DNA of 64,000 bases from a phage: assembly GCA_025832235.1 (NCBI GenBank), contig GCA_025832235.1_3649.1, one strand, 5' to 3'. The translations under genes were made by a program, and so were the position numbers. How positions within the stretch are numbered: position 1 is the stretch's first letter; each line of letters starts with the position of its first letter. Positions 25,830 through 49,795 of the stretch are shown here, piece by piece. The notes below the pieces were generated by a model that did not search any database, was not told the origin of the DNA, and saw only the letters and a program-made list of their open reading frames with translations.

Positions 25830-25891
25830 TTTTCAGATCTCCTTATACAAAAATGCCCCACCCTTTCGGGCAGGGCTATGTTAGTTATGTG

Positions 25892-26470
25892 TTAAAAGTA
25901 TTCGTATAAGTATCCATCTGGAGCTGGAATTTTTTCATGAATGTAGTAACCAATATATATTCCGGTTTCTCTGCTACAAGAGTTGTGAGATACCCATTCT
26001 TCAAGAACGTTACCATTCATGTCCAACCTCCTTACATTTTTGCACCGTCTACCGCTGGTGCTTCTATGTAACAGAATATCCTCTGTCTGCTTGTCTTTAT
26101 TTTCTCCCCAAGTCGTTAAACGGATATTATCAAAAGAGTACCCTTTGAAATCATCTATCCTGTCACAAGAAGGCTTTTTCCTTTTGTCGTATCCGCTGGC
26201 TACCCACTGATCATACAACTCTTTGTAACCGTTAAGGTATAGCCACTCCTTAAACTCTTTTTTGGTGTAAGTCGGAGGAGGGTGACCTCTTTGCTTGCTG
26301 TTGCACTTTTGAGCCTTGTACAACACACGTATTACACCTTTTTCTGAAGAGTCTTTAGCAAATTGGTCAGCCTCCCTGCTGGCCTTCTTGCAACACTCTT
26401 TGCACGTTGATTTGTTACTGGTGTAGAAGTCGGAGGCCTCCTTGTCCTCTCCACAACGTTTGCATTTCAT
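25892..26470 (-). CDS. putative HNH-family (homing) endonuclease with N-terminal zinc ribbon
   Basis: CKRCG...CKECC zinc ribbon; SCDRIDDFKGYSFDNIRLTTWGENKDK resembles HNH-type motif; same motif in 48815..49795. Confidence 0.45.
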   Translation of the reverse strand: MKCKRCGEDKEASDFYTSNKSTCKECCKKASREADQFAKDSSEKGVIRVLYKAQKCNSKQRGHPPPTYTKKEFKEWLYLNGYKELYDQWVASGYDKRKKPSCDRIDDFKGYSFDNIRLTTWGENKDKQTEDILLHRSTSGRRCKNVRRLDMNGNVLEEWVSHNSCSRETGIYIGYYIHEKIPAPDGYLYEYF

Positions 26471-26478
26471 AACTGACC

Positions 26479-27705
26479 TCAGAAAGGGATCGAGTCATCG
26501 AACTCATACTGCGCCGGATTCTGATCCATCGGGTCATCTTCCTCATCATTTACAGGAGGAGCGTCTACAGTGTTTTGCTGTAGAGCTGTTTCCTGTTTGG
26601 CAGCCTGAGGTTCTTGATGGTCAGTTGACCCAGCACCGTTCTTGATCCAATCGTACAACGGCTCAGCCAGATTAGTCAAGACATCTTTTGCTTCTGCAGT
26701 AATTGCCGCTGCAAAATCATCAACTTTAGTTTTCTTGTCAATACGGCGACAAGCGTTCAACACCGCATTACCGACACTGGCACCTACTTCATCTTCAGTT
26801 CGGTTGGTGGCTTGAGCATACTCTTTCTTAAGCTCAATAGTGACTACGTGCAGTGTTTTAGCCACGCCTAGTGGGTCGTCTACCTTAAACCCGCGATCCA
26901 GGATGATTTGCAACGCATTGATGCTATGTCCCGTCTCCACACCAATAGGGTCGTAAGAGGATTTACGCTTGCCACCAGAGCCTTGAGTGCCGTTCTCTGC
27001 CTTAGGTGGGTAGGCTTTGAAACCACTGATAATGTTTCCGGTGTCTTTGTCAACAATGGCTGCAACACGACCACCTACCACCAGGTCTTTAAGCTGCTCA
27101 TCAGTGACAACCATAGCACCTTCGCCAATCTTGTGGTCATTAACAGTAACCACGTTGCCAACAATCTGAGTCACATCACCATAGATGCGTAAAACGTCCT
27201 GATTGGCATTCTGCTGAGGTTTCTGCTTCTGGCCTTGTGATTGTGCACCTTGTTGCTGTTTTTGCTGCTGAGTCGCTGCTGGAGCCTCTCCTGCACCCAG
27301 CTTGACCATCTTAGCCAGTGAGCCTTTGTAATAGGTCTTACCGTTATGCTCGTTTGCCTTCAAAGGGATATTTACGATCCATCCCGGTGTTACGGTTTCC
27401 CACTTGTCATCAATTTTAACAGAGACAGAGTCTTGATGACCCGGTTTAAGCAGTTTATCACCCATACTGATCCAGACTTCTTCACCACCTTGAAGTAGGT
27501 TATCAGAGGAATCCAGTTCAGAAATCAGTAAAGAGATGGTGTGGCTGGATTCAATTTTCTTACCTTGCCACACAGTGGTTTTAATACCTGTTGTAGGATC
27601 AGCACCTTTGATAGGCTTGATGCTGACACGTTTAATCATGCCGTGAGCCAGTAAAACAGTTTCACGCGGATTCATCGGGTTAGCGAATTGTTGAATAACG
27701 CTCAT
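26479..27705 (-). CDS. putative single-stranded DNA-binding protein
   Basis: Gln/Gly-rich linker and acidic C-terminal tail ...EFDDSIPF like bacterial SSB ...DDDIPF; sits beside the replication module; OB fold not verified. Confidence 0.4.
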   Translation of the reverse strand: MSVIQQFANPMNPRETVLLAHGMIKRVSIKPIKGADPTTGIKTTVWQGKKIESSHTISLLISELDSSDNLLQGGEEVWISMGDKLLKPGHQDSVSVKIDDKWETVTPGWIVNIPLKANEHNGKTYYKGSLAKMVKLGAGEAPAATQQQKQQQGAQSQGQKQKPQQNANQDVLRIYGDVTQIVGNVVTVNDHKIGEGAMVVTDEQLKDLVVGGRVAAIVDKDTGNIISGFKAYPPKAENGTQGSGGKRKSSYDPIGVETGHSINALQIILDRGFKVDDPLGVAKTLHVVTIELKKEYAQATNRTEDEVGASVGNAVLNACRRIDKKTKVDDFAAAITAEAKDVLTNLAEPLYDWIKNGAGSTDHQEPQAAKQETALQQNTVDAPPVNDEEDDPMDQNPAQYEFDDSIPF

Positions 27706-28070
27706 TATTTGTCTCCTTGTTCTTCGTTAGTGTTTGCCGTGTGTGCAAACCCTGCTTGAATTAATTTGTCCTGAACTTGAGCCAGCAGGCCCATTGCAAA
27801 ACTTGTGGTCCCAGAGAGGGCCATCAGCATATCTCGTTGTTGAGCTACCCAACCTAAGGCATAGTCCAAACGACGATATTTTTCTTCTTCACGCAAAGCT
27901 TGGAATAATTGTTCAGCCTCTGGCTGTTGTGTGAGCTCCTGAAGTCTTCCCATGAAAGAAGAAAGCACTAGCAGAAGAGACACTTGATCTTTACTTAACC
28001 CTAAGAAAAATTCTTGAGGTTGTTCTTGCTCGTTCATCGCAACCGACGCTTGATCGTTCATTTGTTCCAT
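27705..28070 (-). CDS. hypothetical protein
   Basis: ORF track; coupled to SSB-like gene. Confidence 0.5.
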   Translation of the reverse strand: MEQMNDQASVAMNEQEQPQEFFLGLSKDQVSLLLVLSSFMGRLQELTQQPEAEQLFQALREEEKYRRLDYALGWVAQQRDMLMALSGTTSFAMGLLAQVQDKLIQAGFAHTANTNEEQGDK

Positions 28071-28153
28071 TATGGAATCTCCGATTTTATTTGAACAACA
28101 TAGAAGGAGACACTATTTTAGCATCCCCTTCTGTAAATTACAATAGGTATTTG

Positions 28154-28399
28154 TTAGCCAATCACTTCGAAAGTTCCCCAATTCCCGTCCAGCAGGCAGG
28201 TGATCGGATCTCCATCGTCGTCAAAGATTTCAAAGTTTTCAGCATCCAGGATGTGGCCCTCGAACACAATACTCTCGTCGCCACCACCAGAAATAACAGC
28301 GTATTCCTTACCTTGAGTCAAGTTTTGACACCCTTTGCCACCAAAACCTACTTCCACACAACGTACTTTCTGTCCTGCGCGAGCAACTACTTCAGCCAT
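28154..28399 (-). CDS. hypothetical protein
   Basis: ORF track. Confidence 0.5.
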   Translation of the reverse strand: MAEVVARAGQKVRCVEVGFGGKGCQNLTQGKEYAVISGGGDESIVFEGHILDAENFEIFDDDGDPITCLLDGNWGTFEVIG

Positions 28400-28416
28400 C
28401 TTAAGGTCTCCTGATA

Positions 28417-28737
28417 TTAATCGTCAAGTTCAAAATAGATTTTAACAGCTTCATCAAAGATTGGAATCCCGATGTTGTTGATAAGCTGCCAAACTACCAT
28501 ATCTTTACCTGGATCTGGGAGAATGTCAACCTTTCTCCATGCGCTGTATATCCAGTTCGGACCACCTTCTGCACTAACTGGCAGATTTTCACCAGCTTCC
28601 TGTAGATACTTATACAGCAAAAGATATTCTGGATACTCTAGAACACTGTCCTCTGTAGTATATAGCAGTTCACGGTATACTTTTAAAAACCCTGCGGGGG
28701 TGATGTTTTCAGTCTTCATTTGCTGCTTCTCCTGCAT
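28417..28737 (-). CDS. hypothetical protein
   Basis: ORF track. Confidence 0.5.
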   Translation of the reverse strand: MQEKQQMKTENITPAGFLKVYRELLYTTEDSVLEYPEYLLLYKYLQEAGENLPVSAEGGPNWIYSAWRKVDILPDPGKDMVVWQLINNIGIPIFDEAVKIYFELDD

Positions 28738-29101
28738 TCATCAGATCTGCCATAGCGTCACCAACGAAGAGGACAACCACATCGTTGACAGCGTCAGCAT
28801 CATCTTTGTTGACGTTGCTGAATTTAGGACACACAGCAATGATCATATAGACACCGTTGCCCACCTGAACTGTCCGTGTGGTGCACATCATGGCGGTATT
28901 TGTGCCTTCTTTGAAGGCGAAGCCTTGAAGACGCTCCTCTAGAGTGTTACCGGTAGATTTCAGAAGCGCCAGCTCGTCCAAGGCATATATGATATCTCCG
29001 GAAGTTAGTGTTGCCTTTCCATCAGACACCATAATCACTCCATCAGCACCGTCAAGCTTAGAGGCTTCAAAGATATCAATATCCCAAATATTTTTCATCA
29101 C
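28709..29101 (-). CDS. hypothetical protein
   Basis: ORF track. Confidence 0.5.
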   Translation of the reverse strand: MMKNIWDIDIFEASKLDGADGVIMVSDGKATLTSGDIIYALDELALLKSTGNTLEERLQGFAFKEGTNTAMMCTTRTVQVGNGVYMIIAVCPKFSNVNKDDADAVNDVVVLFVGDAMADLMNAGEAANED

Positions 29102-29430
29102 GCTTCCTCGTCGTCTAAGTAATCATCAAGAGAGGTGAAGATTTCACCGAAGTATTCTAAGATTTCTAGCTCACGTGTGGTGCAGCAAACATAATCTCCT
29201 TGGTCGTCCTTAATAGTGGCCTCTTTACCCAGAATATCTACTTCAAGTTCATCGTTCAACAGGACGGCCCCTGTGTAAACTTTGTCAGCTGTGCAGTCCC
29301 GAAAAGCAGAGTCCTTCTCCAGATAGTCTGGCTTAACCTTGGCTTTAATTCGTTGATATTGTTTGGTCATTGCTGTGGTCCCCTTTCGTTTTGATAGGGC
29401 CATTATAGTAGGCCCTATCACTGTTGTCAA
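29098..29430 (-). CDS. hypothetical protein, Cys-motif family (D-AF-DCT ... DDQGD-V-CT)
   Basis: ORF track; paralog of 29434..29688. Confidence 0.55.
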   Translation of the reverse strand: MTTVIGPTIMALSKRKGTTAMTKQYQRIKAKVKPDYLEKDSAFRDCTADKVYTGAVLLNDELEVDILGKEATIKDDQGDYVCCTTRELEILEYFGEIFTSLDDYLDDEEA

Positions 29431-29433
29431 GTA

Positions 29434-29688
29434 TTAATGTTCAGGTTTTACAAAAACTACTTCATTAACAGTGCACCAGACAGAGTCTCCTTCATCATCT
29501 TTAAAGGTAAGGCACTGTGCTGAGTTTTCCAGCTCATCGATCTCTTCTTGTGATAAAGGGGCCCCTTCTTCCAGGAGGGCTTTTACCAGAGGGTTCTCAC
29601 AAAACTCTGCTTCATAAATTGCACCGACTGTGCAATCTTTAAAAGCTCGGTCATTTGCAACGCATTCTGACTTCAAAGTAATTTTCAT
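29434..29688 (-). CDS. hypothetical protein, Cys-motif family paralog
   Basis: ORF track; DRAFKDCT ... DDEGDSVWCT. Confidence 0.55.
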   Translation of the reverse strand: MKITLKSECVANDRAFKDCTVGAIYEAEFCENPLVKALLEEGAPLSQEEIDELENSAQCLTFKDDEGDSVWCTVNEVVFVKPEH

Positions 29689-29764
29689 CTTAGCAGTCTC
29701 CTTAGTTATTTAAAAATCAACGCTCTGTTTGTGTAAAGCATCTTATATCTAATCTTACTTCTTG

Positions 29765-30136
29765 TCAATGACTATTTTCAATCAGCCACACAGGGTCGAG
29801 GTAAATTTGTTGGCGTGTTGCCCAATGACAAACTTCATTGTACATCTGAACCTCTTTGTCCGTCAGTTCACGAATAGGCTCATCTATACCCTCATTTTTG
29901 TGGTAATCCCAGTCGGCATCGATTTCCCACAGCCATGACTTGTTGTCACCACGCTTACGCACACAGAAGTCACCAGGACGGCCTGCCAGTGCATTTAAGA
30001 ACTCGTTCTCCGCTCGCTCCTGAAGAATACTAAGGAGCAAAACGTTGGAGCATGACCGTAAAATATGCTTCAGCTCACAATCATCAATCTCAACTTCAAT
30101 ACGTTGTTTGACTGTGTGGGTACCTTTTACTAACAT
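29765..30136 (-). CDS. hypothetical protein
   Basis: ORF track 29765..30163; ATG 30136 follows GAGGAGG. Confidence 0.55.
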   Translation of the reverse strand: MLVKGTHTVKQRIEVEIDDCELKHILRSCSNVLLLSILQERAENEFLNALAGRPGDFCVRKRGDNKSWLWEIDADWDYHKNEGIDEPIRELTDKEVQMYNEVCHWATRQQIYLDPVWLIENSH

Positions 30137-30146
30137 ACTACCTCCT

Positions 30147-30341
30147 CTAAACGAACTCTGCAAGAGTTGTGTTGTTCACTGCACCGCAGTAAATGGAGTA
30201 TCCCAGCCCATTAGAGTGCAGAAACCACGGCGTGCCGAAATTATCTTTCACGTAGACATCACCGTTGTTTGTAAAGGGCCAATATTCTTCCCCAAGGGTA
30301 AAATACCTATTCATACCTTCAGCAAGATACTTTACTTTCAT
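30147..30341 (-). CDS. hypothetical protein
   Basis: ORF track. Confidence 0.45.
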   Translation of the reverse strand: MKVKYLAEGMNRYFTLGEEYWPFTNNGDVYVKDNFGTPWFLHSNGLGYSIYCGAVNNTTLAEFV

Positions 30342-30565
30342 AGGTCCTCTTCAACAACTACAAACTTGGCAAGCAAAGTGGTTCCGTAGATATGATACTC
30401 ACCGTTTGCCAGGTGAGAGATATACCAGGCAACCCCTTCCTCGTCTTTAATCATTTTGTTTGCACGAGCTTTATCGTAATAAACCTCGTAGGTCTTTCCT
30501 TCTTTAAAGAATGACAGGTCTGTCATCTTTTCTTCTACAAAGGTAGCTTTAACCAAAGTCGTCAT
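30338..30565 (-). CDS. hypothetical protein
   Basis: ORF track. Confidence 0.5.
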   Translation of the reverse strand: MTTLVKATFVEEKMTDLSFFKEGKTYEVYYDKARANKMIKDEEGVAWYISHLANGEYHIYGTTLLAKFVVVEEDL

Positions 30566-30969
30566 TGATCAGTCTCCTTCTTGTTAAGTCTGAATACTGC
30601 AATAATAGCATTCCCAAGGTGCAGTGTCAAGTCATTTCCAAGATACCACAGCATTCCACGGTCATCTTTGATGAAAGGGTAGCAATTTGGTGCCTTCTCT
30701 TTAATGAAAGGGTGACAATCTGGTGCTTTCCAGACATTGTACACTTTCCCAACCTGAAAGAAATCAGGCCCTGTTGGGATTTTAGTGCCTGGCCACACTT
30801 GAGATACCTGAACACACTCCACCTGCATAATAACAGGGATAGTCATGGATGTAAATGTTTTTGTTGGTTCTACTACCATAAAAGTCTCCTCTTTGCTCAA
30901 CAACACTTCCATGTGTTGATAGTTTACATTAGTGACAATCACCCCAGTTACGACCACACAAGTATTCAC
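30562..30969 (-). CDS. hypothetical protein
   Basis: ORF track (GTG start overlapping end of polymerase exon 2); true start uncertain. Confidence 0.45.
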   Translation of the reverse strand: MNTCVVVTGVIVTNVNYQHMEVLLSKEETFMVVEPTKTFTSMTIPVIMQVECVQVSQVWPGTKIPTGPDFFQVGKVYNVWKAPDCHPFIKEKAPNCYPFIKDDRGMLWYLGNDLTLHLGNAIIAVFRLNKKETDQ

Positions 30970-31282
30970 CTGTGATCTGGAACGGGACTCCCATCATTTT
31001 AGAAGCTTGCCAGAAGCAATGCACCACCATTTCACCCACAGGGCTCCAGATAAGTTCAAGCTTTCCGTCATCGTTCAGGATAGGATCGTACACCGTGTTT
31101 CCGTCTCTGTCAACCACTTCGTTTCCGTTTTCATCCTTGCGTGCCTTTTTGTACTTATGACCGTCGAACACATGAAGTTTGGCTTCCTGCTCTGCCTTAA
31201 ATGCTTCCAGTTCTTCAATTGTGTCGAAGGTGTACACAGTCTTATACTTCGGTGTGTCAGGCACTTGAAGTTGGTACTCATC
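30929..31282 (-). CDS. DNA polymerase (family A, T7 gene 5-like), exon 2 (C-terminal, begins with the DE of motif C)
   Basis: Translation DEYQLQV...GEYLCGRNWGDCH; C-terminus parallels T7 DNA polymerase ...TEGKMGPNWAICH; no SD or start codon of its own. Confidence 0.7.
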   Translation of the reverse strand, partial: DEYQLQVPDTPKYKTVYTFDTIEELEAFKAEQEAKLHVFDGHKYKKARKDENGNEVVDRDGNTVYDPILNDDGKLELIWSPVGEMVVHCFWQASKMMGVPFQITGEYLCGRNWGDCH

Positions 31283-31558
31283 CAATAGTTCAGGTAGGTC
31301 GTTAAGCTACCCCGCACCATTACGTGCATAGCCATACGTTTTCACGTAGGATCGGACCATCTCATATTCCTATGATAAGCAACCACAGGAATCCTCCCAT
31401 TTCGACCGCACTTGCTGGTCTACTTCCTTTCGGAATGGCCTCTGAGCGTTCGCTCTTTTGAGCGCTTCGTTGCGGATTACCTTGCCATAAGGTTTAGGCT
31501 TCCCGCAGTTAAAGAGGTTATTCGACATAGATTACTCTATGAAGCCACAATGTTATTT
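31283..31558 (-). mobile_element. group I intron (276 nt, ORF-less) in the DNA polymerase gene
   Basis: Splits H|DE of motif C; 5' exon ends in U, intron ends in G; IGS GUGG pairs with exon CCAU; P-like AACUGCGGGAAG (31499-31510), Q-like AAUCCGCA (31471-31478), R-like GCUCAGAGGCCA (31436-31447), S-like GAGAUGGUCC in canonical order; stops in all frames. Confidence 0.7.
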
Positions 31559-34500
31559 ATGGTAATAAATAATACGACGAACACCTTCATCGTACCACCC
31601 ACGCTTCACCATCTGGCGGTGCATGAGTATTCCAACTAAGTCACACAGCGATGCACCACCATTTTGTTGGTATGCATTAAGTAAAGAGTGTTTAGATCTG
31701 GTCCAGATAGCATGACCATCAAAAGAGTAGATAAACTTCTTACCCGTTGCTTCCCAGAATTTCTCCAGATCTTCTTTACGCCCCTTAAGACCAGGGTTGG
31801 CATCCCAGAGTGCATCGATTACCCTTTGTCCCAACTCTGGAGAGATGTCCAGCATATCTGCAACTTTATCTTTTTGTGCCCCATACATAACCCCATACGT
31901 GATAGGTTTACCGTCGTTACGGGAAATCTCCTTGCCTGCTACAGAAGAGTAAGCTTTGGCGTTATTACAGTTACCGCACACTGCCACTTTACCATTCCTT
32001 CTCACAATGATTGCTCCAGAAGGGACGGTAACGCAATAAACCAAAGAACCGCTCACCTCGACAGACTCTTTAGATAGTGTCAGCAACCCTGCTCTCTGTT
32101 TGCTACCAATTGTGATTCTGTGCTGCACGGCACGACCTTTTTTGTGAATCGCCACCGTATTATTCCGTAAACCACACTGAGTAGCCAGCGCAGACACCAC
32201 CTCTACAGATTTCTTCCTGCACTCGGCCTGGGAGTAGTAAGCAACCTTTCCACCTTCGGAAGATACCCACCCGTCCCAGTTAGATAAAGAAGCTATAAAC
32301 AGGTTTTTAGATTCTTTATCAAGGTTCATCAGGTTATAGGTGAAATCCTTATTGTTGTCCAAAAACTCAAATACCCAGGACGGAACGTGGAATTGGAACC
32401 TTCTCGCCAGTAAGCCTCCTTTTGTGGTTTTCCCGCTCTGCTCTACATAACTAAGGCTTAGAGCAGAAAAAGTATCTAAAAGCGTTGCAACTTTTCTTCC
32501 CTTTCCGACCTGAATCCTGCACACGATGCTGCCGTCCTTATTTGTATGCAAGTGCCCATCATCGTGAATAGCAATAAGCAAATTAACCTGGGCAGGAGAT
32601 AAGGTTGTATTCCCATAAAACTCTGCCGCATGGATAAACCTTCTTCCTGAATTAGACCCTTTACCTGCTTTCAGGTCTTTTGCCAAATCTTCAAACAATT
32701 TATTGCTTCTGTGATCCACAGTCAGCATCCTGTGTTGATCTGTAACCATAAAATCCACACTACTGTTGTGGAAATGATACATATCCCCACAATAACTACG
32801 CTTAACGTAATTTAATGGAGTAACAAGGTTCATTGACGAGGTGTTGTGATCGTACTGGAACACTTGTGTTCCCGGATCAAGATCTTCAAACCTCACCCAC
32901 CCTTTCTCCGTGAGAATTTGTGTATCTCCTGAATAACAGTGTGCATCGCCGTTACTTACAACATCGTAATACAGGCCGTTGTCGAACTCAAAGGCACCCC
33001 AAGCCCCGATAAGCTGCTCTAAGTTGGACCCGTCAATACCGATCTCAAAGTATCCTGGAGGAACACCCCACAGACTACGCATCTCTTTACCCATAACCAC
33101 TTTAGGAGATGGTTTAGGCATGTTTGCACAAATACTGTGTTTCTGTCGGGAAGTGTTTGTTAATCCAGAACTTTTAGCAGGAAGCTTATGGTCAATCTTC
33201 AAACGTGGGTGATTAAGAAGACCAGTATCAACCTTATCCTCCTTGATTGGATCAAGGACCGATCTGCGGTTTCGCAATGATAACCACAAGACGATATCTT
33301 TAGCCATCTCTCCGTTCAATTTTTCAAGATTCGGGCATAGGTGTCCAAACGTATCTTTCAGTTGCGGAGAAGTAATAAGTGCCCTAGCTTTTCTACGTAT
33401 TTTCCCGAATACTTCCTTTTTAATCCTTTCGGAGTTAGGAAAGCTTCTGAACTTGTGCACGGTTGTCTGGAACTTAGCATCAGTTTTGTTCCAGAAGTTG
33501 ATAATTAGGTCACAATACTCTGACTCTAAAAGCTCGTCCATATATGCATACACTCGTGCATCAACATCTGCATCAGGTAGAGCTTTCTTCTTGCTGTCTT
33601 TAGTTACATCCTTAGTTCTCCACATTGTCGGAAGCCAACCAGCACTGATCAGGTATCGCTTAATATCGTCCTGATTGCTGATTTTCATAGGTATCTTGCA
33701 GTCAGGCATTCGCTTCTGCTGTAGATCACTTATTGCCTGATCCATTAGCTCTTTAGGTAAAGGTTGTGGTGTGGAGGTGCCCTTGATATAGCCCCTCAAG
33801 AAATCCGCCATCTTATCAGGGTCTTTACAGCCCATCTCTTCACACCATTTTATCCCCATCTTACTGACATCTCCTGTGGAGGTAAATGCTCGCTTAGGAG
33901 GAGCTTTGAATTCTAAAGCACTCATGTCCACAGGGTAGCCAAGCTTGTCTTTTAACCATTTCCAACCATTATTGGAGATTGTCCCATCCTGGTTAAACGG
34001 CTTTTCAGGGAACTTAGGCCGCTGAGACATTGATAACTCTTTTAAAGGAAGTTGTGGTTCAACACGATCAGCGATCTCTTTCATCCACGCATCGCAGCGG
34101 TCACGTAAAGCAATAGCCCCATCTATGTCGAAATACACACCCTGTCGAGCCTGCAGCTCCATCAGGAAATGTTGCAGCATGCCTCGGCGTAATGCATTCT
34201 TCCAGGTAATCTTCTTGAATCCTTTAGGCTTCTCTTTGGCAGGGTCATACATAAAGTTCTGCATGTCAGATTTGCCGTAGAATACACCTTTTGATTCCGC
34301 TACCAACTCTTTCCAGAGCAACTCCTGGATGATAACGTCCTCGAACACACGATCCACATATTTCCACAGCGGAAGATCGCGCCAGTCATCAATTTGAACT
34401 TTCTGGTTACCAAGGGCGTAGCCCCATGCCATAAGGCCGTGAGGACCAACAGGTTGCATTTTCTTAGTAACCGGGTTGAATACAGCGTCCGGACAACCTT

Positions 34501-34951
34501 TTGGTAAAGGGCGATCAGGCCACAAGATTCGGCTCATAGCCAACGTATCAAACAGGTTAACCTGGTGGTCGTTGATAGTCCCCATGCATTTAGGATCACG
34601 GAACATATCAAAATGAATACCGGATAATCTTTCCATTAGCATAAAGTCATAACTGTAGCAGTTATGGCAGTTCAAAGCTGTTGGTGACCAGTCAGAATTG
34701 CCTGTAAGCCAACCTTCCAACTCCGAAAAATCTGCTATGCGAACTTCAAAATCTTTATAAAGAGTTTTCTTTGCCAGAATGAAGTTCTTAGCCTTTTCTA
34801 TATCCTCCTCGGAGTAGTGTGTGCGGTCATTTAGAGGAAGGAACAGCATAAAACGGTTCTTATTCAGCTCTTTAAACAGACCGCAGTGATAATAAAGATC
34901 TGGGTCTTCCAGCAAACCGGATGACTCAAAATCGAAAGACCACATACTCAT
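31559..34951 (-). CDS. DNA polymerase (family A, T7 gene 5-like), exon 1, containing an in-frame intein
   Basis: N-terminal 3'-5' exonuclease motifs (FDFESSG, CHNCYSYD, GPHGLMAWGYALG); motif A IDGSNLEQL; motif B KPITYGVMYGAQK; ends ...RRIIYYH where HDE is expected. Confidence 0.85.
31970..32938 (-). mobile_element. intein (323 aa) with LAGLIDADG-type homing endonuclease domain
   Basis: Block A CYSGDTQILTEKGW, block B LTVDHR, LAGLIDADG-like LLIAIHDDGH and FIASLSNWDGW, C-terminal VYCVTV...VAVCGN followed by +1 Cys; flanking exteins NGDAH|CNNAKAY restore a T7-like NGDIHTKNQIA segment. Confidence 0.75.
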
Positions 34952-35009
34952 ATACAGTTCTCCTTAAAGGGGAGGCGGTTGTACTACCCCTCCCACTCTT
35001 TGTTAAACA

Positions 35010-37088
35010 TTAAAAAGGCGTTTCATCATCCTCAAAACCAGGGACCGGGTCAGAGGATGGATCATCGTACTGGAGGTCTTCCTGCGTGTCAACAGGCTTA
35101 ACAGTAGGAGTTACAACCTTATCAGCCACAACCTTGCCCATAGGTGTTTCTACAACTGCATGCTCCTGATCCTCAAACATAGCCTGAGGTCTCCAAACAA
35201 CCTCCCCACCTTCTCCGTCTGTAAACATTTGCATTTCTTTGTCCCAGTACCAATTACTGGCATCATGGAACTTACCTGTATGCGGATCCATAACTAAAGT
35301 GTCAGCAATACCTAAAGTTTTTGCTGGACGGTTTTTAAGACCTACCAGACGGACACGTCCACGAGAACGATCCACCATTTCTTCAGCCTCGACACCTATG
35401 ACTACCCAACTCAACTGTTCAAGCCCAGCCGATCCTCGCAAATTCTCTTTTCGCACAGGATACCAGAAAGGTAACGGGTTACCATCCTTGTCCTTAGGAG
35501 GCACAATCTCTGTACGTTTGAGGTGAGCGATCACCAAGATAAACACGTTAAACTGCTTACAAAACGCAGCCAGCTGAGTCATAGCCATGTCCAGTTCTTT
35601 TCGCTCATCCTTAACATTAAGCCCTGAAATTACCATGGACAGGTGATCCAGCACAATATAACGGCAATGGTACAGGCAAACCATTTGCTTAAGCTTGGTA
35701 ATCAACTCGTCCACCGGAATAGATCCGAAATGTTTGAACACTTTGATTTTTCCAGCTTTTGCCCATGATTGGTGAATCTCTGCGTGTTCTTGATCAGTTA
35801 AAAACTGGCTAGGATCTTCAACAAACTCTTTAACATCAAACCCTAACTGGTTTGCATACAAGGAGTTAATTGCTTCCTCTGGGTCCTCCTCAAGATGGAT
35901 CATACATAGACGATCATCCTCTTCATAGTCATCAGCCTTCGGGCATGTCGGGTCCATTAGGTATCTTGCAATACAATGTTCCAGTTTTTTAGCTACAGTT
36001 GTTTTACCGCCCCCTGATGGCCCTGTAAGCATTACGAGTGTCCCTTTGTGCAAGCCTTTTAGCATTTTTTGCAGTTTTGGGAACTCTGCGCTGATATCTA
36101 CCCCGTTGGAAGTCTTTTTCCGCAAAGACTCGATAGAGAAGTCTTCTAAATCCGACACAGCATCAGGCACATATTTAACAGGGTGCCGGAACATGTTGAC
36201 AATATCTTCCAGCTTTTTAGCCTTCAGCATGTCACGGATATCTTTTACCCCGTCAGGGTCATTTACTTCACCAGGGTATTCTACGTGGTAAACGTTATCA
36301 GCCATCAAAAATGCTGCGATATTGTGCGTGGCCTCAACACCTTTAATGACGTGTTTTTGCTTCTCTACCTCGTTAGCTGCATCGTTATCCATTGCCAGCA
36401 CAACTGTTCCATAGCTACGGATAAACTTCTCATTGTTTGCAAAAGTATCTACTGCGTTTGCACATCCACAGTTAATTCCAACAAAAGGCAGGCAGGGTTT
36501 TCCTGCCAGATCACCACCGTTGATAACTGCGTCGATCCCGTCCTGGACCTCTTTAGCCCACTGCTTCACCTTTGCCGGGGCTTTAGCGTTGGTGAGAATC
36601 CCTTTTACTTGTATCTGATATGCAGCCTGCCATGCTGCAATAACATCACCTTCCCCCTCACAAACGTTAATCTGCTTACGGTTGTTGGAAGATGCACACA
36701 GCTTTTGACCAAACATCTGGGAGTTGGCCTTTACGATGCCAACAACGGAGAAGTGGCCCCTTTGTTCTTTAGGAATAGTCCAGTCACGCTTTTTGAAACC
36801 GGACAGATTTCCGTAGCGGTCGTAATATGGGAAATATGTTGCAGTGACTGTCACACCGTCTTCTTGTGACAATGCTGATCGCACACCAAAATATTGTGCA
36901 GCCATCAGACCGATATTTTGTTGTGGGACAGGGACAATTTTAGTATTTTCTAAAACAGTCTCTACAGTTTCAACTTCTTTTTCATCACGATAGTCTCGTT
37001 TCACACTTCCCCCACTTTTATACTTAGTTGCTTTCGGGTTTGGCTCACCGAAACGGTTGTATGCAGATGCCATAAATTTACTTCCCAT
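35010..37088 (-). CDS. primase-helicase (toprim domain + DnaB-like helicase; T7 gp4-like)
   Basis: Toprim motifs CEGEGD and LAMDNDAANE; Walker A LTGPSGGGKTT; Walker B IVLDHL; AHLKR; acidic C-terminal tail ...FEDDETPF. Confidence 0.8.
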   Translation of the reverse strand: MGSKFMASAYNRFGEPNPKATKYKSGGSVKRDYRDEKEVETVETVLENTKIVPVPQQNIGLMAAQYFGVRSALSQEDGVTVTATYFPYYDRYGNLSGFKKRDWTIPKEQRGHFSVVGIVKANSQMFGQKLCASSNNRKQINVCEGEGDVIAAWQAAYQIQVKGILTNAKAPAKVKQWAKEVQDGIDAVINGGDLAGKPCLPFVGINCGCANAVDTFANNEKFIRSYGTVVLAMDNDAANEVEKQKHVIKGVEATHNIAAFLMADNVYHVEYPGEVNDPDGVKDIRDMLKAKKLEDIVNMFRHPVKYVPDAVSDLEDFSIESLRKKTSNGVDISAEFPKLQKMLKGLHKGTLVMLTGPSGGGKTTVAKKLEHCIARYLMDPTCPKADDYEEDDRLCMIHLEEDPEEAINSLYANQLGFDVKEFVEDPSQFLTDQEHAEIHQSWAKAGKIKVFKHFGSIPVDELITKLKQMVCLYHCRYIVLDHLSMVISGLNVKDERKELDMAMTQLAAFCKQFNVFILVIAHLKRTEIVPPKDKDGNPLPFWYPVRKENLRGSAGLEQLSWVVIGVEAEEMVDRSRGRVRLVGLKNRPAKTLGIADTLVMDPHTGKFHDASNWYWDKEMQMFTDGEGGEVVWRPQAMFEDQEHAVVETPMGKVVADKVVTPTVKPVDTQEDLQYDDPSSDPVPGFEDDETPF

Positions 37089-37872: not shown

Positions 37873-37893
37873 CCTTTCGGGCAGGGCCTAGTG

Positions 37894-38376: not shown

Positions 38377-38388
38377 AACACCCTCTCC

Positions 38389-39086: not shown

Positions 39087-39146
39087 CGTTTAGTGCTTCC
39101 TTAGTTTTTGTGGGGAGGAGTGCCTCCCCTTTAGACCCACATCTTA

Positions 39147-39488
39147 CTACTCAAGGTCTTCAGAGTCAAGCTCAAAAAGAATCAAACTGTGCATACCTGC
39201 AGAGAGATCAACACACCCTGCAACAATAAGGGTCTGATAGTAAGGTTCAGTACCCTCGATGTCTTCGTTAAAATCCACAACAAGGTAGTCACCTTTGTTA
39301 AAGGTGTATTTGTCCGATGTAAATGCAAAACCTGCCCAGTCCCCTACTGCAGGATCTTTATCAGTCACCTTTGTTAGCAGTAGATCTTTTTCACGAGATC
39401 TTTTAGTAAAATCGTGAATCACAACATCCTTCTCTTCAGGAGTTGGATTTCCACACACGTAGTTAACTATATTTCTCCACAAACTCAT
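39147..39488 (-). CDS. hypothetical protein
   Basis: ORF track. Confidence 0.55.
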   Translation of the reverse strand: MSLWRNIVNYVCGNPTPEEKDVVIHDFTKRSREKDLLLTKVTDKDPAVGDWAGFAFTSDKYTFNKGDYLVVDFNEDIEGTEPYYQTLIVAGCVDLSAGMHSLILFELDSEDLE

Positions 39489-42060: not shown

Positions 42061-42070
42061 CTTGGTCTCC

Positions 42071-44053: not shown

Positions 44054-44550
44054 TTATTGCGCTCCTTGTAGTAGATATGGCTCCCGAATTGAGCTGTCCT
44101 CTGCATCTTTTTTGCCCATTTCGGTCGTACTTTGGTTGTATGGTAGTGTGTTGCTCCACCTGTTATGTCCATAGCCATGTATGCAACATGGTTGTTATTA
44201 TAGACCTTTAGAAGCATCTTTGCAAGACTTTTAGCGTGATCCCATGAATCTTTTTCTGTCACCTTAAAAGTTTTGCCGTGGTTTGTCCACGAAAACTGGT
44301 TAGGTTGGTAGACAATCTTTCTTATAGTGTCTGGGTATTTGGGGTGAGATTTCCTGTTTAGTGTGGCAAACCCTGATGCCAGCATACCCATCGTGCCATC
44401 CCCTCTAGCCTCCCTGTAGATATTGCATGCCAGAATGTTTTCCTTAGTATCTGAGGGCTTGCAAGTATGATATACTTTTTGTTTTGGTGCTGCAACAACA
44501 GGCAGCGATAAAAATGCGCTCAAAATAATAGCAAAGATCTTAATTTTCAC
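44050..44550 (-). CDS. secreted cell-wall hydrolase (SleB/Hydrolase_2-like); candidate endolysin
   Basis: N-terminal signal peptide MKIKIFAIILSAFLSLPVVAAP; motifs NIYREARGDG and YQPNQFSW; start overlaps rIIA stop. Confidence 0.6.
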   Translation of the reverse strand: MKIKIFAIILSAFLSLPVVAAPKQKVYHTCKPSDTKENILACNIYREARGDGTMGMLASGFATLNRKSHPKYPDTIRKIVYQPNQFSWTNHGKTFKVTEKDSWDHAKSLAKMLLKVYNNNHVAYMAMDITGGATHYHTTKVRPKWAKKMQRTAQFGSHIYYKERNK

Positions 44551-44599
44551 AATAACTCCAAATAGAAAATCCCCGCCGAAGCGGGGGAGGTCTTAGAAA

Positions 44600-44980
44600 T
44601 TAATCGTAGTGTGCCAAAATCTCTCCATCGTTGCAAGTTCCCTCTACAAAGTTATGAAGATTCATGCACTCATCTTGATAGAAGAATTTACCGCTTTTCA
44701 GCCGTAAGCCAAACAACTCCGCATCTCCACGATGGCAAGCCTCTACAAGTTCATAGATTTCATACGGCAACTCTCCGTCGTCATGGAAGAACCCAGCCTT
44801 ATCGTTGACATAGATGAAGAAATAATCACTGCTATCGCAAGCGTCCAATATTTTAAACCAGATTTCATCTACATCTTTTTCTCGGATATCAATCACGCAA
44901 GTGGAGCTGCATTCGTACTCCTTCTCCGGCTCCTCGGTCAATACCACCCGGTAATTTCCCCGCTTACCTACTTTAGCCAT
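44600..44980 (-). CDS. hypothetical protein
   Basis: ORF track. Confidence 0.55.
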   Translation of the reverse strand: MAKVGKRGNYRVVLTEEPEKEYECSSTCVIDIREKDVDEIWFKILDACDSSDYFFIYVNDKAGFFHDDGELPYEIYELVEACHRGDAELFGLRLKSGKFFYQDECMNLHNFVEGTCNDGEILAHYD

Positions 44981-44989
44981 ACAACCCCC

Positions 44990-46174
44990 TTAAGCTTTAG
45001 CTAAAATGGCGCTAAACTCTTCACCAAACTCTTTTACAATCTTCATCAGGTTTGGGTACGCTTTGATCAGTTGAGCAACGATCTTGTCACGCCCTTTACC
45101 GATAAGCAAGGCATTTCCTAAGGCGTTAGGTTTCATCATCGCCATAAAGACTGAGAATACAAAATCTCGGTTCTCGTCCTTGAAATTTTCCCAAAGGAAA
45201 TCGAGGAAGTTTGCCACACAGCTAACAAGATCTTCGTCAGAGATACTTGCATTTTCCATCATATTACGAATAGCGATACAACCTTCAGATCCAAGAATCC
45301 ACAAGATGTCTGGCTGCTTAGGCCCTACGTATTCTTTGCAACCCCCTGCCATAATCCGACCGATTTCCGGTAAATTGCGTTTCTTGGTGTGGTAGGTCCA
45401 GATCTCTACCGCTGCAGTGTGACCAATAGCACCTTGCAGAAGAACACGGGCCATAGCGTCAGAAATAATACCGCTGTCAAAATCGTGCAGGATATCAGAT
45501 GCAGCAACCCAAGATCGCGGTGTGGCAAAAGATGGGCAATTAATTTCAGCCATAGCCTCATAATTATCAATAGCTGATGGAACTCTTTTCAGATACCCAA
45601 TTACAGAGGAGTGAACCCCGTTGAGGAATGCGTAGTCCTCAATAAACACCTCTGCATTGCTTGTAACCTCTACAATGATAAAACGGTTAGCCAGAGGGGC
45701 TTCGAGCGCCGAAAGAACCGCACCATCTGTAGAACGGTTACCCGCAGCCACAAAAACAGAACCCTTAGGGAATGCATAGGTGCCGCACTTGTGGTCAAGC
45801 ATAATTTGCATTGCAACCTTTTGCAGGTAGTTATCTGCATGAGTGAGCTCATCCAGAAAGATAATTCCGCTCCAGTCAGGATCCGCAGGCCAAAATTCTG
45901 GAATTGCAAACACTGTACGTGTAGTTCCATCCGCTTCTACAGGGATAGGTAGCCCAGATAAGTCGGCAGGATCTTTATCTGACAGTCGCACGTCAACAAG
46001 GTTGTCATCTCGCTCACCGAACATATTATCAGCGATCTGCTTCATCACCTGGCTTTTACCCACACCCATTGGTCCCAAAATTAGGACAGATCGGCTATGA
46101 CGTTGGGCAAACTGAATAATAGCTGGCAACTCACGGACAGTGATTTGACCACTTTCGAATACGTTTCTTGACAT
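44990..46174 (-). CDS. AAA+ ATPase (MoxR/AAA_5-like)
   Basis: Walker A LILGPMGVGKSQ; Walker B IIFLDELTHA; 394 aa. Confidence 0.6.
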   Translation of the reverse strand: MSRNVFESGQITVRELPAIIQFAQRHSRSVLILGPMGVGKSQVMKQIADNMFGERDDNLVDVRLSDKDPADLSGLPIPVEADGTTRTVFAIPEFWPADPDWSGIIFLDELTHADNYLQKVAMQIMLDHKCGTYAFPKGSVFVAAGNRSTDGAVLSALEAPLANRFIIVEVTSNAEVFIEDYAFLNGVHSSVIGYLKRVPSAIDNYEAMAEINCPSFATPRSWVAASDILHDFDSGIISDAMARVLLQGAIGHTAAVEIWTYHTKKRNLPEIGRIMAGGCKEYVGPKQPDILWILGSEGCIAIRNMMENASISDEDLVSCVANFLDFLWENFKDENRDFVFSVFMAMMKPNALGNALLIGKGRDKIVAQLIKAYPNLMKIVKEFGEEFSAILAKA

Positions 46175-46443
46175 TAGTAAAAGTCCTCTACTTGTGTGTA
46201 AGTGTTTTCAAAGTTTTCCAAAACAGATATCACATCGGATCTGTCAATATTATACGTGACTTTCCAGTTGAACGCAACCCTTTCTGCTGTTGCCTCTTCT
46301 GGCGCTAGTCGTCTGCTGGCATAAAAGAGTGTTGGAGTACACTTTCTTGCTTGCCCTCTAACTTTCCCATAATAATATCTGTGAATATCTTTGTCAAAAT
46401 TTAACTCTTTTTCTGCACGAAGTTCATATTGCTGGTATAACAT
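46174..46443 (-). CDS. hypothetical protein
   Basis: ORF track; ATGA-type coupling with upstream gene. Confidence 0.55.
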   Translation of the reverse strand: MLYQQYELRAEKELNFDKDIHRYYYGKVRGQARKCTPTLFYASRRLAPEEATAERVAFNWKVTYNIDRSDVISVLENFENTYTQVEDFY

Positions 46444-46487
46444 CTCTACTACTCCTTAAGCAGCATCCTTGCCGCCATTCCTGCCCA

Positions 46488-46868
46488 CTAGAATGCAGTC
46501 CGAATCCAGACAAGGTTCTTATCTGCCCAATCATAGAGGCAAGTCATTGCACTATTGAATTGCTCACACGGAGGATAATCTTCTTCCATCTGGCGCATAG
46601 CAGAGCCTTGTGGGTAAAGCTCCCGTGCTGCAAACCACGCATCGTAGTCATCCACGGTATCGAAGTAGTATACAACATCCTCCAACTCAGGATCGAACTT
46701 TGAACTATCAGGATCCAGTTGTTCAGGGAACTTGGAGCGTAACTTACCAGCCACAATACTTGCCAACTCGCTAACATGCTTATTGTCCCACTCCACTAGC
46801 TTCCCGTCTTCAGTGATGCGTCCTAACCACTGATCATGCAGGTCAACTGTTGTCTTCCACCGGGCCAT
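46488..46868 (-). CDS. hypothetical protein
   Basis: ORF track. Confidence 0.55.
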   Translation of the reverse strand: MARWKTTVDLHDQWLGRITEDGKLVEWDNKHVSELASIVAGKLRSKFPEQLDPDSSKFDPELEDVVYYFDTVDDYDAWFAARELYPQGSAMRQMEEDYPPCEQFNSAMTCLYDWADKNLVWIRTAF

Positions 46869-46870
46869 TA

Positions 46871-47128
46871 TCAGTCCACCTCTTCTTCTCGTTGTAGTTC
46901 AAGATACCCGTAGGTCTGGATATCTTCAAGAGTGTGGAACTCCCCATCTGCCGCTAAGGCACGAACAACTTGGCACAAAACCTTATGAGGAACTTCATCC
47001 AGACCCATATTCAGTGCAGGGAACACCTTATCTAAGTCAACAAAATAAATGAACTGTAGCTCACCAGCTTCAAAAGGTGTATCTTCAATAAACATCTTCT
47101 CGGCATTGGTCAAGATCTGCACTTTCAT
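46871..47128 (-). CDS. hypothetical protein
   Basis: ORF track. Confidence 0.55.
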   Translation of the reverse strand: MKVQILTNAEKMFIEDTPFEAGELQFIYFVDLDKVFPALNMGLDEVPHKVLCQVVRALAADGEFHTLEDIQTYGYLELQREEEVD

Positions 47129-47505
47129 TATTCTACCTCCTCTTCTTTTTCTTCGGCATTAGTTTCAGAGCTACCCCACTCTGGAGTTTCCACCTCGATA
47201 GTGAACTCACGCACTACACGGTAATTGCCCATGAAGCGCTCCACTTCGTCAAGGTTTATGGAGAGGCCATTGGCAACCAGGTCTGCAGCACCCTCTTCTA
47301 CCAGGTAGTCCAGATTGGCTTCCAAAGCTTCAGGCTCAAACCCTGTCAATGCAATCAGATAACCTTTCCCTTCATCAGGGAGGACAATACAGCCCAACTG
47401 ATTTTCTTTAAAAAGACAGTGACCATCATTATTGATTGGGTGTTCATTGCAGTAAATAGCTGCACGATAAGTAACTTTAGACATCGGTAAGGCCTCCTTA
47501 GGCAA
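47128..47505 (-). CDS. hypothetical protein
   Basis: ORF track. Confidence 0.55.
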   Translation of the reverse strand: MPKEALPMSKVTYRAAIYCNEHPINNDGHCLFKENQLGCIVLPDEGKGYLIALTGFEPEALEANLDYLVEEGAADLVANGLSINLDEVERFMGNYRVVREFTIEVETPEWGSSETNAEEKEEEVE

Positions 47506-47776
47506 TTGTCATTTTACATTCTTGAAATTTTAACACAAGACGGTGATTGTGTCTAGTGTCTAAAAAGATTTTTTCAACCATCAGGCACACGGTATAACCG
47601 TCCATCTTGTTAACAACAAAATCTCCAGGGTGAGGGAGGATGTCTCCCGGGTTGGGGAAACATAGTCCGCTCAAGAAGGCATCGTCGGTGGTAGACTTAA
47701 TAGATTTCCACACGCTATCTGCCTGAACATTCTCACCCACATAGTATACGCTACCACATGTCTTCATCATAGTCAA
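47498..47776 (-). CDS. hypothetical protein
   Basis: ORF track. Confidence 0.55.
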   Translation of the reverse strand: MTMMKTCGSVYYVGENVQADSVWKSIKSTTDDAFLSGLCFPNPGDILPHPGDFVVNKMDGYTVCLMVEKIFLDTRHNHRLVLKFQECKMTIA

Positions 47777-48672
47777 ATCTCCGCGTAAATTAAACTGGAA
47801 TCAGTATACTTCTTTAATGGGTAAATATCCTGTCCATAGATGCAGTCATTAAACACCTCATCTACCCAAAGGCTACACTTATATCCCATCATTTCTAAAA
47901 CGCCCATCTCTTCTTCGGTGAACTTATCACCGCTCTTGCAAGATGTCAATACCTCATTCTGTACTCTTGCTACCTCGAAGCGGTTATTGGCAATATCACT
48001 ATTGGCAATCAAATACTCACCTAAAGGGTGTGCAGCATTAAAGATGCACAGTGGACGGTTGACGTAATAGTCTCCCGGTGTATAAAAATTGTTGAGATCC
48101 TTCACCAGAACATTCTTATCAGTCACTTCATTTATAACATCATGCATATCACACATCTTTATATGTTTGAGGATTCCATCCCCCATCACAAAATAAAAAC
48201 TTGCTGAGACACTCTCGGCATAGATCTTACTAGATCCGTTGTAGTTGTATTTTACGCGAATGCTTACAGGGGTTTTGCCTGTCGCGTTAGCCATCATCCA
48301 AAGGAACGGAAGTTCAAACCTCTCCTCTGAGGAAACAAAAGGTGAAGTTGCCAGAGATCGGAAACCTCCAGAAAAGTTGAAAGTTACAGAGCCGCTCCGG
48401 CGATATGATACCGCATATTCTACTTTTATATCGACATAGCCGTTGGAGTAAGTGTGGCCTCCATTATCCAGATATGTCCACTTATCAGATCCGGATACCA
48501 GCCTACGCTCAATAACCTTCATTACTATAGGAATTAGCGGGTTGGTACAAACCGATTTTGAAGTAGCTTTATCATCCAAAGCCTCGTAAATTGCAGAAAG
48601 GATATCACCTGCTGAGAGATTGGTTGTGATATCTTGTTTCCACCGAGTGCTAAAGCTGTTAAGATTTGCCAT
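47773..48672 (-). CDS. hypothetical protein (first gene of the leftward operon)
   Basis: ORF track 47773..48714; ATG 48672 follows CAGGAG and lies downstream of the predicted leftward promoter. Confidence 0.55.
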   Translation of the reverse strand: MANLNSFSTRWKQDITTNLSAGDILSAIYEALDDKATSKSVCTNPLIPIVMKVIERRLVSGSDKWTYLDNGGHTYSNGYVDIKVEYAVSYRRSGSVTFNFSGGFRSLATSPFVSSEERFELPFLWMMANATGKTPVSIRVKYNYNGSSKIYAESVSASFYFVMGDGILKHIKMCDMHDVINEVTDKNVLVKDLNNFYTPGDYYVNRPLCIFNAAHPLGEYLIANSDIANNRFEVARVQNEVLTSCKSGDKFTEEEMGVLEMMGYKCSLWVDEVFNDCIYGQDIYPLKKYTDSSLIYAEI

Positions 48673-48712
48673 GATTAAGTGCTCCTGTGTTCGTTTTCTT
48701 TCGAATGGGTGC

Positions 48713-48741
48713 ACTATATCGTAGATTTATAGTAAAGTCAA
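48713..48741 (-). promoter_or_regulatory. leftward sigma70-like promoter (TTGACT-N17-TATAGT)
   Basis: Plus-strand AGTCAA 48736-48741 and ACTATA 48713-48718; -35 lies in one arm of palindrome GTCAAC-N11-GTTGAC. Confidence 0.5.
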
Positions 48742-48754
48742 CACGTTTTTGAGG

Positions 48755-48783
48755 TTGACATCTGTCGAGGCACTTGATAAGAT
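48755..48783 (+). promoter_or_regulatory. rightward sigma70-like promoter (TTGACA-N17-TAAGAT)
   Basis: TTGACA 48755-48760 in the other palindrome arm; TAAGAT 48778-48783. Confidence 0.5.
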
Positions 48784-48814
48784 TTCTTCACCTACAGAGC
48801 ACGAGAGACAACTC

Positions 48815-49795
48815 ATGAATCTTGAAAAATATTATACACCAGAAGAGTTAGAGCGCCTGCTCAAAAAATACAGACGCAAACAAAATAATGCACGGAAACG
48901 AGATATAGAGTTCAACCTGTCATGGGAAGAATACCTCCTATTTGGTAAAAAACTTTTAGGAGAGGGGGTATGCGACTATACCCTTATACCTTTCGACATG
49001 CACACAGATGAAAACGGGCTGGGGAATCCTTTCTACCCATCTCTGGAGCGGATAGATGATGAAGGTCCTTACGCAATTGACAATTGTTGTGTGGTAGGGT
49101 TGAGGTGCAACGCTCTGAAAGACTGTCTGGTAGATAAAAAGACTGCAATATTGATAAAAGACAAAACTGATCGAAAAATTGTCCAGCAGATGATGCTTCA
49201 CCTGAGCGAAGAGCGTATGGAGAAATTGAAAGGTGATTATACTTTTGAAGATTTCATCTTGCAATACGGGACAGAAGAAGATAAACTAGCACTTTTTGAC
49301 GAAGAGGAAGAAGATATGTCACCAATGCAGGACTTTAAAAATTTCATGGCTGATCGTGCAGCCAACAAACACATTTCAGACATCGTAAACGAAACTGTGA
49401 CAGAAGAAATTGGAGAACAGAACTCTGAAGAGGAAAAAGAGCCTCAGGAGGTCGAAGAGGAGATTGCAGAAGAGGTTCCTGCACTGCCTGACGATGTTGA
49501 GATTGCCAAAGCTTACACTTTCTATTGCCAGACGTTCTACGATGCAGGTATGAAAGTTGATCTGTCATTCAGCCAGTTTAAGAGCACATACATTCGAAAA
49601 TGTTGTGCTTTAACTGGTGAACGTCTCGGTGCCGGACTTAAACCCCTATTAGTTACCGACTGGAACAAAGGTTTCACCAAAGGTAACTTCATGGTAGTAT
49701 CTCCAATCATGGAGAAGGCTATGACAGACCTTATGAAGACCACTCGCATGACAATGACCGAGTTGGCTGGTATTTTCAAGCACGTTAAACAATGA
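48815..49795 (+). CDS. hypothetical protein with HNH-like motif and acidic linker
   Basis: ORF track 48749..49795; ATG 48815 is downstream of promoter; PSLERIDDEGPYAIDNCCVVGLRCNALK shares motif with 25892..26470. Confidence 0.45.
   Translation: MNLEKYYTPEELERLLKKYRRKQNNARKRDIEFNLSWEEYLLFGKKLLGEGVCDYTLIPFDMHTDENGLGNPFYPSLERIDDEGPYAIDNCCVVGLRCNALKDCLVDKKTAILIKDKTDRKIVQQMMLHLSEERMEKLKGDYTFEDFILQYGTEEDKLALFDEEEEDMSPMQDFKNFMADRAANKHISDIVNETVTEEIGEQNSEEEKEPQEVEEEIAEEVPALPDDVEIAKAYTFYCQTFYDAGMKVDLSFSQFKSTYIRKCCALTGERLGAGLKPLLVTDWNKGFTKGNFMVVSPIMEKAMTDLMKTTRMTMTELAGIFKHVKQ

Follow-up and report, generated by a model that had tools for sequence, protein, structure and literature searches.

The question raised by the 64,000-nucleotide stretch of phage DNA analysed here (NCBI GenBank assembly GCA_025832235.1, contig GCA_025832235.1_3649.1; hereafter the window) is whether two distant genes, whose products share a DRIDD...GY...N motif, are related to each other and whether both of them are free-standing homing endonuclease genes of the HNH type, as an initial annotation of this DNA had proposed. 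The two genes, here called gene A (minus strand, 192 amino acids) and gene B (plus strand, 326 amino acids), are open reading frames (ORFs) that exist as they had been placed (Table 1), and the peptides quoted from them, SCDRIDDFKGYSFDNIRLTTWGEN in gene A and PSLERIDDEGPYAIDNCCVVGLRCNALK in gene B, were found. Both regions are 95-99% identical to rV5-like E. coli myoviruses (genus Vequintavirus), the closest matches to both being phages WalterGehring and nom. The reading that we propose, and that we regard as probable, is that the two proteins carry homologous domains of the PacI type, gene A being a free-standing homing endonuclease gene and gene B a gene fixed in its lineage, the orthologue of rV5 gp11, which is similar to Srd of phage T4.

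When the two proteins are compared directly by BLASTP only the 16-residue motif is aligned (E = 0.005), and the DRIDD...Y...N string could on this basis be taken as a chance likeness of unrelated proteins. Such an explanation is so improbable that it can be considered negligible. An hhalign comparison of the gene A family with the gene B family gave a match of 96.6% probability (E = 5e-10) that extends over 79 columns, corresponding to residues 45-128 of gene A and 13-103 of gene B. Hidden Markov models (HMMs) of the two families were compared with the 498 stop-to-stop ORFs of at least 50 amino acids found in the window, and the sole cross-match of each was the other ORF (E = 2e-4 and 3e-5); a motif scan of these ORFs found the shared motif in genes A and B alone. 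Furthermore, the PHROG profiles 1035, 3322, and 3118, labeled "endonuclease VII", "endonuclease", and "HNH endonuclease" respectively, each match both proteins, and the structural models of both have the identical top structural neighbour. Because of the profile-profile match and the unique reciprocal cross-matches the resemblance is attributed to homology rather than chance.

The fold that they share had been described as an HNH-type beta-beta-alpha-like motif. This is correct at the level of the fold, since both proteins have a His-Me finger, but neither is a canonical HNH protein because the catalytic histidine is missing; the exact kind is the rare variant represented by PacI. The Pfam and NCBIfam scans of both proteins matched no HNH model, and the PHROG endonuclease profiles matched the two of them. 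PacI is the reference His-Me finger nuclease without catalytic histidine, in which a tyrosine located in a loop substitutes for it (PMC5714182, PMC3384342). It has been placed in group 20 of the His-Me fingers (PMC5714182) and it is a homodimer with one motif per subunit (PMC3384342). Gene A had two weak sequence matches among solved structures, the better one being PacI (E = 0.035), which was also the only match, again a weak one, for the gene B family profile (E = 0.44). The PacI residues D92-R93-x-D95...Y100...N104...N113 align with D103-R104-x-D106...Y111...N115...N124 in gene A and with E78-R79-x-D81...Y86...N90...N99 in gene B. The position of the general-base histidine, at the end of the first strand, is thus an arginine in both proteins (R104 and R79), invariant in both families, and the asparagine that serves as metal ligand in the helix, which aligns with PacI N113, is invariant in the gene A family (N124) and present in at least 90% of the members of the gene B family (N99). 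The other positions are also well conserved: P100, S101, D103, and Y111 are invariant in 35 relatives of gene A, and Y86, N90, and K102 are invariant in 67 relatives of gene B, in which E78 is found in at least 90%. In the PacI variant as predicted for genes A and B the arginine would replace the general-base histidine and the loop tyrosine would assume its role.

The two proteins differ from PacI and from each other in what surrounds this core. PacI (PDB 3LDY/3M7K) is a bacterial restriction enzyme of 142 amino acids with two Cys4 zinc sites and without an extra DNA-binding tail. Gene A has the first zinc site only and adds a NUMOD-like tail. Its four cysteines (C3, C6, C23, and C26) are nearly invariant in the 35 relatives and correspond to the CxxC...CxxC pattern of PacI, CPRC...CKGC in PacI aligning with CKRC...CKEC in gene A, so the zinc ribbon assigned earlier to this gene is well founded; there are no cysteines where PacI has the CGYC/CFIC site. 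Gene B lacks a zinc ribbon, one cysteine (C53) being conserved, has glutamic acid in place of aspartic acid, and is extended by a linker and by a second, decayed domain copy. In a set of 149 representative relatives the Glu-Arg pair was found in 93 of the 104 with the architecture of gene B, and Asp-Arg in 21 of 25 short proteins that have the motif near the C-terminus. Asp-Arg is also present in all 51 motif-bearing relatives of gene A. Five metagenomic proteins (P0173, P0174, P0199, P0208, and P0213) include two intact Asp-Arg motifs (DRID...Y...N) in tandem in one chain and may be single-chain PacI-like dimers; gp11 looks like this tandem layout with the second site decayed.

The model of gene A has a beta-beta-alpha core consisting of strands at residues 100-104 and 116-120 and a helix at residues 121-134, followed by a small strand-strand-helix-helix-strand unit encompassing residues 146-191. 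In the region aligned with residues 146-192 the relatives carry NUMOD1 or I-HmuI-type NUMOD-like modules (PF22083, PF07453). Free-standing homing endonucleases of the I-HmuI and NUMOD type have a canonical HNH_3 or HNH core, whereas the core of gene A is the PacI variant without histidine, and gene A is matched by no Pfam HNH model. Free-standing HNH genes have been described in Certrevirus CB7 (PMC7344957).

The distribution of gene A among related phages is that of a mobile gene. The locus is fully covered in 51 of 117 related phage records, and in the remainder it aligns in two pieces that span 1214 instead of 1801 bp, which indicates that these records lack just gene A. When the window is aligned with phage ime, the two differ cleanly by 587 bp at gene A. 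The presence/absence polymorphism expected of a mobile gene therefore exists: approximately 51 of the 117 Vequintavirus records carry the gene and the others show a clean absence of 587 bp. The site of insertion is defined by a gene coding for a 408-amino acid protein, whose 3' end abuts gene A, and by an intrinsic terminator, which in non-carriers comes directly after the stop codon of the 408-amino acid gene; in carriers gene A is found between this stop codon and the terminator. The gene A ATG is located 8 nucleotides past the stop codon. The sequence preceding this ATG contains no promoter-like site; gene A may be translated from the transcript of the upstream 408-amino acid gene. Two alleles of gene A exist, the 192-amino acid version found in the window and a version of 207 amino acids with a different N-terminal end that overlaps the 408-amino acid gene.

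The junction was compared in an alignment of five carriers and five non-carriers using 30-column windows. The 30 columns at the junction, which correspond approximately to the last 26 bp of the 408-amino acid gene, are 30% diverged between carriers and non-carriers, whereas the other windows are 3-7% diverged; in the same 30 columns the five non-carriers are 6% diverged among themselves. In the outer flanks the divergence between carriers and non-carriers equals the divergence inside each group, and the two are thus not two old clades. Relatives of gene A with 37-46% identity were found in two unrelated phages, one of them crAss-like, where the surrounding genes are unrelated as well. The polymorphism, the divergence at the junction, the scattered relatives, and the architecture are together what is typically seen with free-standing homing endonuclease genes, and gene A most likely is one, judging from these comparisons. 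Records of the BASEL collection such as that of WalterGehring already label it "putative homing endonuclease"; others have "endonuclease VII".

A possible course of homing can be outlined. The gene A enzyme would cut relatives without the gene within or close to the final ~26 bp of the 408-amino acid gene, the codons of YAFDDDIPF, recombinational repair would then copy the 587-bp gene A between the stop codon and the terminator, and carriers would escape cutting by virtue of 5-6 substitutions in the site. The 408-amino acid protein ends in ...AQYAFDDDIPF in non-carriers (L002, L012, and L013) and in ...YEFDDSIPF in the window, and in carriers of the long allele (L003 and L016) loss of the stop codon extends the protein by 15 residues (...DFCDDIPFAPVGLQYGKSRIHAL), which bury the tip. 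The DDDIPF tip found in non-carriers is identical to that of the E. coli SSB protein. The codons of this tip apparently contain the homing site of gene A, and immunity would cost the carriers a changed or buried tip; gene A thus seems to impose a cost on the neighbouring 408-amino acid gene.

The label "endonuclease VII" deserves consideration because it implies a housekeeping enzyme that resolves junctions in the manner of T4 endonuclease VII. It is found in PHROG 1035 and, as "endonuclease VII" or "putative endonuclease VII", in annotations of related records. T4 endonuclease VII (gp49), the source of the PHROG 1035 label of gene A, belongs like gene A to the broad His-Me finger superfamily, but gene A shows no match to the Endonuclease_7 family with its histidine-containing active site, and we consider it very unlikely that gene A is such an enzyme. 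An annotation as PacI-type homing endonuclease would be a better description of this gene.

Gene B presents a different picture. It matches PHROG 3118 at E = 1e-110 and PHROG 1400, "Srd", at E = 8e-10, and it is the orthologue of rV5 gp11, described as "probably a Srd homolog" and postulated to be an anti-sigma decoy (PMC3606486). The presence/absence polymorphism seen for gene A does not extend to it, as 118 of 118 related records carry the gene. Full-length orthologues with 36-41% identity are found in Mydovirus, Salmonella, Cronobacter, and Erwinia phage records, and the identity is ~23-25% for those in Aeromonas and Vibrio phages. In the window as well as in Mydovirus Ro1 and Vibrio phage VnaP, gene B is the first gene after the switch from leftward to rightward genes. 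A sigma-70-type promoter sequence precedes it, back to back with another one directed to the leftward unit (Table 1), in agreement with the bidirectional promoters reported between rV5 genes 10 and 11 (PMC3606486). A plus-strand sigma-70-type promoter is present upstream of the Mydovirus Ro1 orthologue, and none was found upstream of that of VnaP. Since the gene B promoter is located inside the extension that would result from a start at the TTG at position 48749, the start codon of gene B is the ATG at 48815. Many gp11 database entries have 346 amino acids (e.g. P0058, with 336 member sequences) and apparently were started upstream of this ATG; these starts are probably wrong because the extension would cross the promoter.

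Gene B could also be a free-standing homing endonuclease gene, as it shares the nuclease fold of gene A and is named "HNH endonuclease" in some GenBank records and in PHROG 3118. We consider this possibility extremely unlikely. Besides its presence in every related record, the orthologues in distant genera are full-length and found at the same position, the protein has no NUMOD-type DNA-binding module, and the gene has its own strong promoter and heads a unit. Gene B is not mobile and is fixed in its lineage. The traffic of homing endonucleases that had been proposed for both genes is consequently limited to gene A, given that gene B is rV5 gp11, a published probable Srd homologue. In place of "HNH endonuclease", "anti-sigma factor", or "anti-termination protein", gene B can be described as encoding an early protein of the Srd family that has a PacI-type domain.

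The gene B product consists of a well-predicted N-domain (residues 1-165 in the model), an acidic linker of low predicted order, and a C-domain that is a degenerate duplicate of the N-domain. The relationship between the two domains is supported by an hhalign comparison of the N-domain and C-domain sub-alignments (97.8%, E = 7e-13). The C-domain retains C264, D282, and N291, and the arginine, the tyrosine, and the last asparagine are gone. The overall predicted template modeling score (pTM) of the model is 0.57 and the packing between domains is not confidently predicted.

The similarity to T4 Srd is confined to the N-domain. BLASTP of gene B against T4 Srd (NP_049634) gave E = 1e-7 over the N-terminal 130 residues, and hhalign of the gp11 family with 16 T4-type Srd proteins gave 98.3% (E = 2e-14) over 84 N-terminal columns only. 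T4 Srd and the gene B N-domain have in common the signature SLER-x-D...GY..GN...N, and E64, R65, Y72, N76, and N85 are invariant in the 16 T4-type proteins, which go down to 31% identity. T4 Srd matches the same PHROG "endonuclease" profiles as genes A and B. These profile matches and the five invariant residues indicate that the Srd-like N-domain is a His-Me finger of the PacI type whose active-site set is complete. Scans of T4 Srd against Pfam and NCBIfam returned no meaningful family, T4 Srd and its family profile found no relative among the solved structures, and phmmer and hhalign detected no similarity of its C-terminal half (~160 residues) to the linker and C-domain of gp11. A literature search combining Srd and HNH found no paper that links Srd to the PacI-type nuclease fold.

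T4 Srd has been postulated to be a sigma decoy and, according to papers that cite Qi et al. 2015, binds RNase E at its catalytic N-terminal half and accelerates the decay of host mRNA. Given the homology of its N-domain with that of Srd, gp11 is most likely an early host-takeover protein with host gene expression or host nucleic acids as its target, either through binding of a host protein, as reported for T4 Srd and RNase E, or through cutting of nucleic acids. In the latter case gp11, and by extension the Srd family, would have PacI-type nuclease or nickase activity. In gp11 the intact N-domain would contribute an active site, with the decayed C-domain taking the place of the second PacI-like subunit, and the protein would be an asymmetric enzyme made of a single chain that nicks host or phage nucleic acid at an early stage of infection. 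In favour of this proposal, the catalytic set is kept both in the gp11 family and in the 16 Srd proteins. Furthermore, the C-domain fold is confidently predicted although the catalytic residues are lost, and these residues are therefore not required merely for folding; their invariance in the N-domain and loss in the duplicate argue that the set is in use. The relatives with two intact tandem DRID motifs and the PacI homodimer, with its one motif per subunit (PMC3384342), point in the same direction. On the other hand, those citing papers describe T4 Srd as acting through binding to the N-terminal half of RNase E rather than as a nuclease, the change from aspartic to glutamic acid at the metal-ligand position in most proteins with the gene B architecture could mean that the chemistry was changed or lost, no zinc sites are left, and the two domains are not confidently packed against each other. 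We consider an active gp11 nuclease rather unlikely. His-Me finger nucleases leave 5'-phosphate ends. If the proposal is true, the Srd and gp11 "anti-sigma factors" would be tyrosine-dependent PacI-type nucleases, gp11 with one live and one dead domain, and the RNase E-dependent mRNA decay credited to T4 Srd might begin at the cuts made by Srd itself.

Returning to homologous PacI-type domains in a mobile gene A and a fixed gene B, several observations count against this view of the two genes. The second zinc site of PacI is missing in gene A and both are missing in gene B, and the tail of gene A itself has no significant NUMOD or Pfam match. The homing site would follow from the comparison of 10 aligned genomes, and early expression of gene B is suggested by a match to a consensus promoter. 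The transfer of function from Srd to gp11 is weak, because the homology of T4 Srd to gene B covers only ~84 residues of the N-domain and no relationship between the C-terminal halves is seen at the sensitivity used. Even with these points, the initial annotation can be considered half right: gene A is a mobile gene of the homing-endonuclease type with a PacI-variant core, and gene B is the known Srd-like gp11. Public records already contain annotations for the two genes, which makes this a largely ordinary finding. What is new is modest and consists of the precise assignment of the fold, the internal duplication in gp11 with its degenerate copy, the intact active-site set of the Srd family, and the apparent homing site in the DDDIPF codons. 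The presence of an intact PacI-type set in T4 Srd and rV5 gp11 bears on how Srd-like proteins work.

Table 1. Location of genes A and B, their predicted domains and signals, and neighbouring features in the window. pLDDT, predicted local distance difference test.
Feature	Coordinates	Strand	Remarks
Gene A, free-standing PacI-type homing-endonuclease-like gene	25892..26470	minus	192 amino acids plus stop
Cys4 zinc ribbon, gene A residues 1-27	26390..26470	minus	aligns with PacI
PacI-type active-site motif, gene A residues 103-124	26099..26164	minus	
NUMOD-like (I-HmuI-like) DNA-binding tail, gene A residues 146-192	25895..26035	minus	
Predicted intrinsic terminator downstream of gene A	25855..25876	minus	9-pair stem, then T run
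408-amino acid gene, 3' end abutting gene A	26479..27705	minus	PHROG 4477, unknown function
Probable homing site with immunity substitutions	26482..26507	minus	last 26 bp of the 408-amino acid gene
Group I intron in the DNA polymerase gene	31333-31568	minus	RF00028, 64.7 bits
1132-amino acid polymerase ORF	31553-34951	minus	weak Hint-domain (intein) match, residues 672-706
Primase/helicase ORF	35010-37088		58 bp from the polymerase ORF (34951-35010)
Divergent sigma-70-type promoter, leftward unit	48713..48741	minus	TTGACT-17-TATAGT
Sigma-70-type promoter for gene B	48755..48783	plus	TTGACA-17-TAAGAT, TG before the -10
Gene B, rV5 gp11 orthologue, Srd-family early gene	48815..49795	plus	326 amino acids plus stop
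PacI-type motif, gene B residues 78-99	49046..49111	plus	Glu for Asp
Acidic linker, low predicted order, gene B residues 166-221	49310..49477	plus	pLDDT 47-71
Degenerate N-domain duplicate, gene B residues 222-326	49478..49792	plus	pLDDT >90
Gene after gene B	49805-51286	plus	DUF2201 metallopeptidase plus VWA-like; PF13203 2e-28, PF09967 4e-11

As noted in the initial annotation, genes A and B flank the replication module, and the genes for a helicase, a primase/helicase, the DNA polymerase, and the 408-amino acid protein are enclosed between them. In WalterGehring the interval includes genes for a fucosyltransferase, a MoxR ATPase, rIIA, rIIB, a helicase, two methyltransferases, a primase/helicase, a split DNA polymerase, a run of small ORFs, and the 408-amino acid protein. 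The MoxR ATPase is encoded in the divergent unit opposite gene B. An intein and an intron had been proposed in the polymerase gene; the intron is confirmed as a group I intron and contains no ORF, and the intein is represented by the weak Hint match. The intron found in the polymerase gene of WalterGehring, unlike that of the window, houses a homing endonuclease gene. At the gap between primase/helicase and polymerase, WalterGehring has a 735-bp "putative homing endonuclease" gene, bas51_0076, and this site is a further presence/absence polymorphism of a mobile gene.

The DUF2201 gene that follows gene B is named "HNH endonuclease" in PHROG 1314, and the label has been copied into records such as that of Raoultella phage Ro1. 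For this peptidase the label is wrong. At both loci, 16 GenBank records in the range MG065644-MG065690, named "Campylobacter phage" with C. jejuni as the host, are 95-96% identical to the E. coli rV5-like phages, and their host labels look doubtful.

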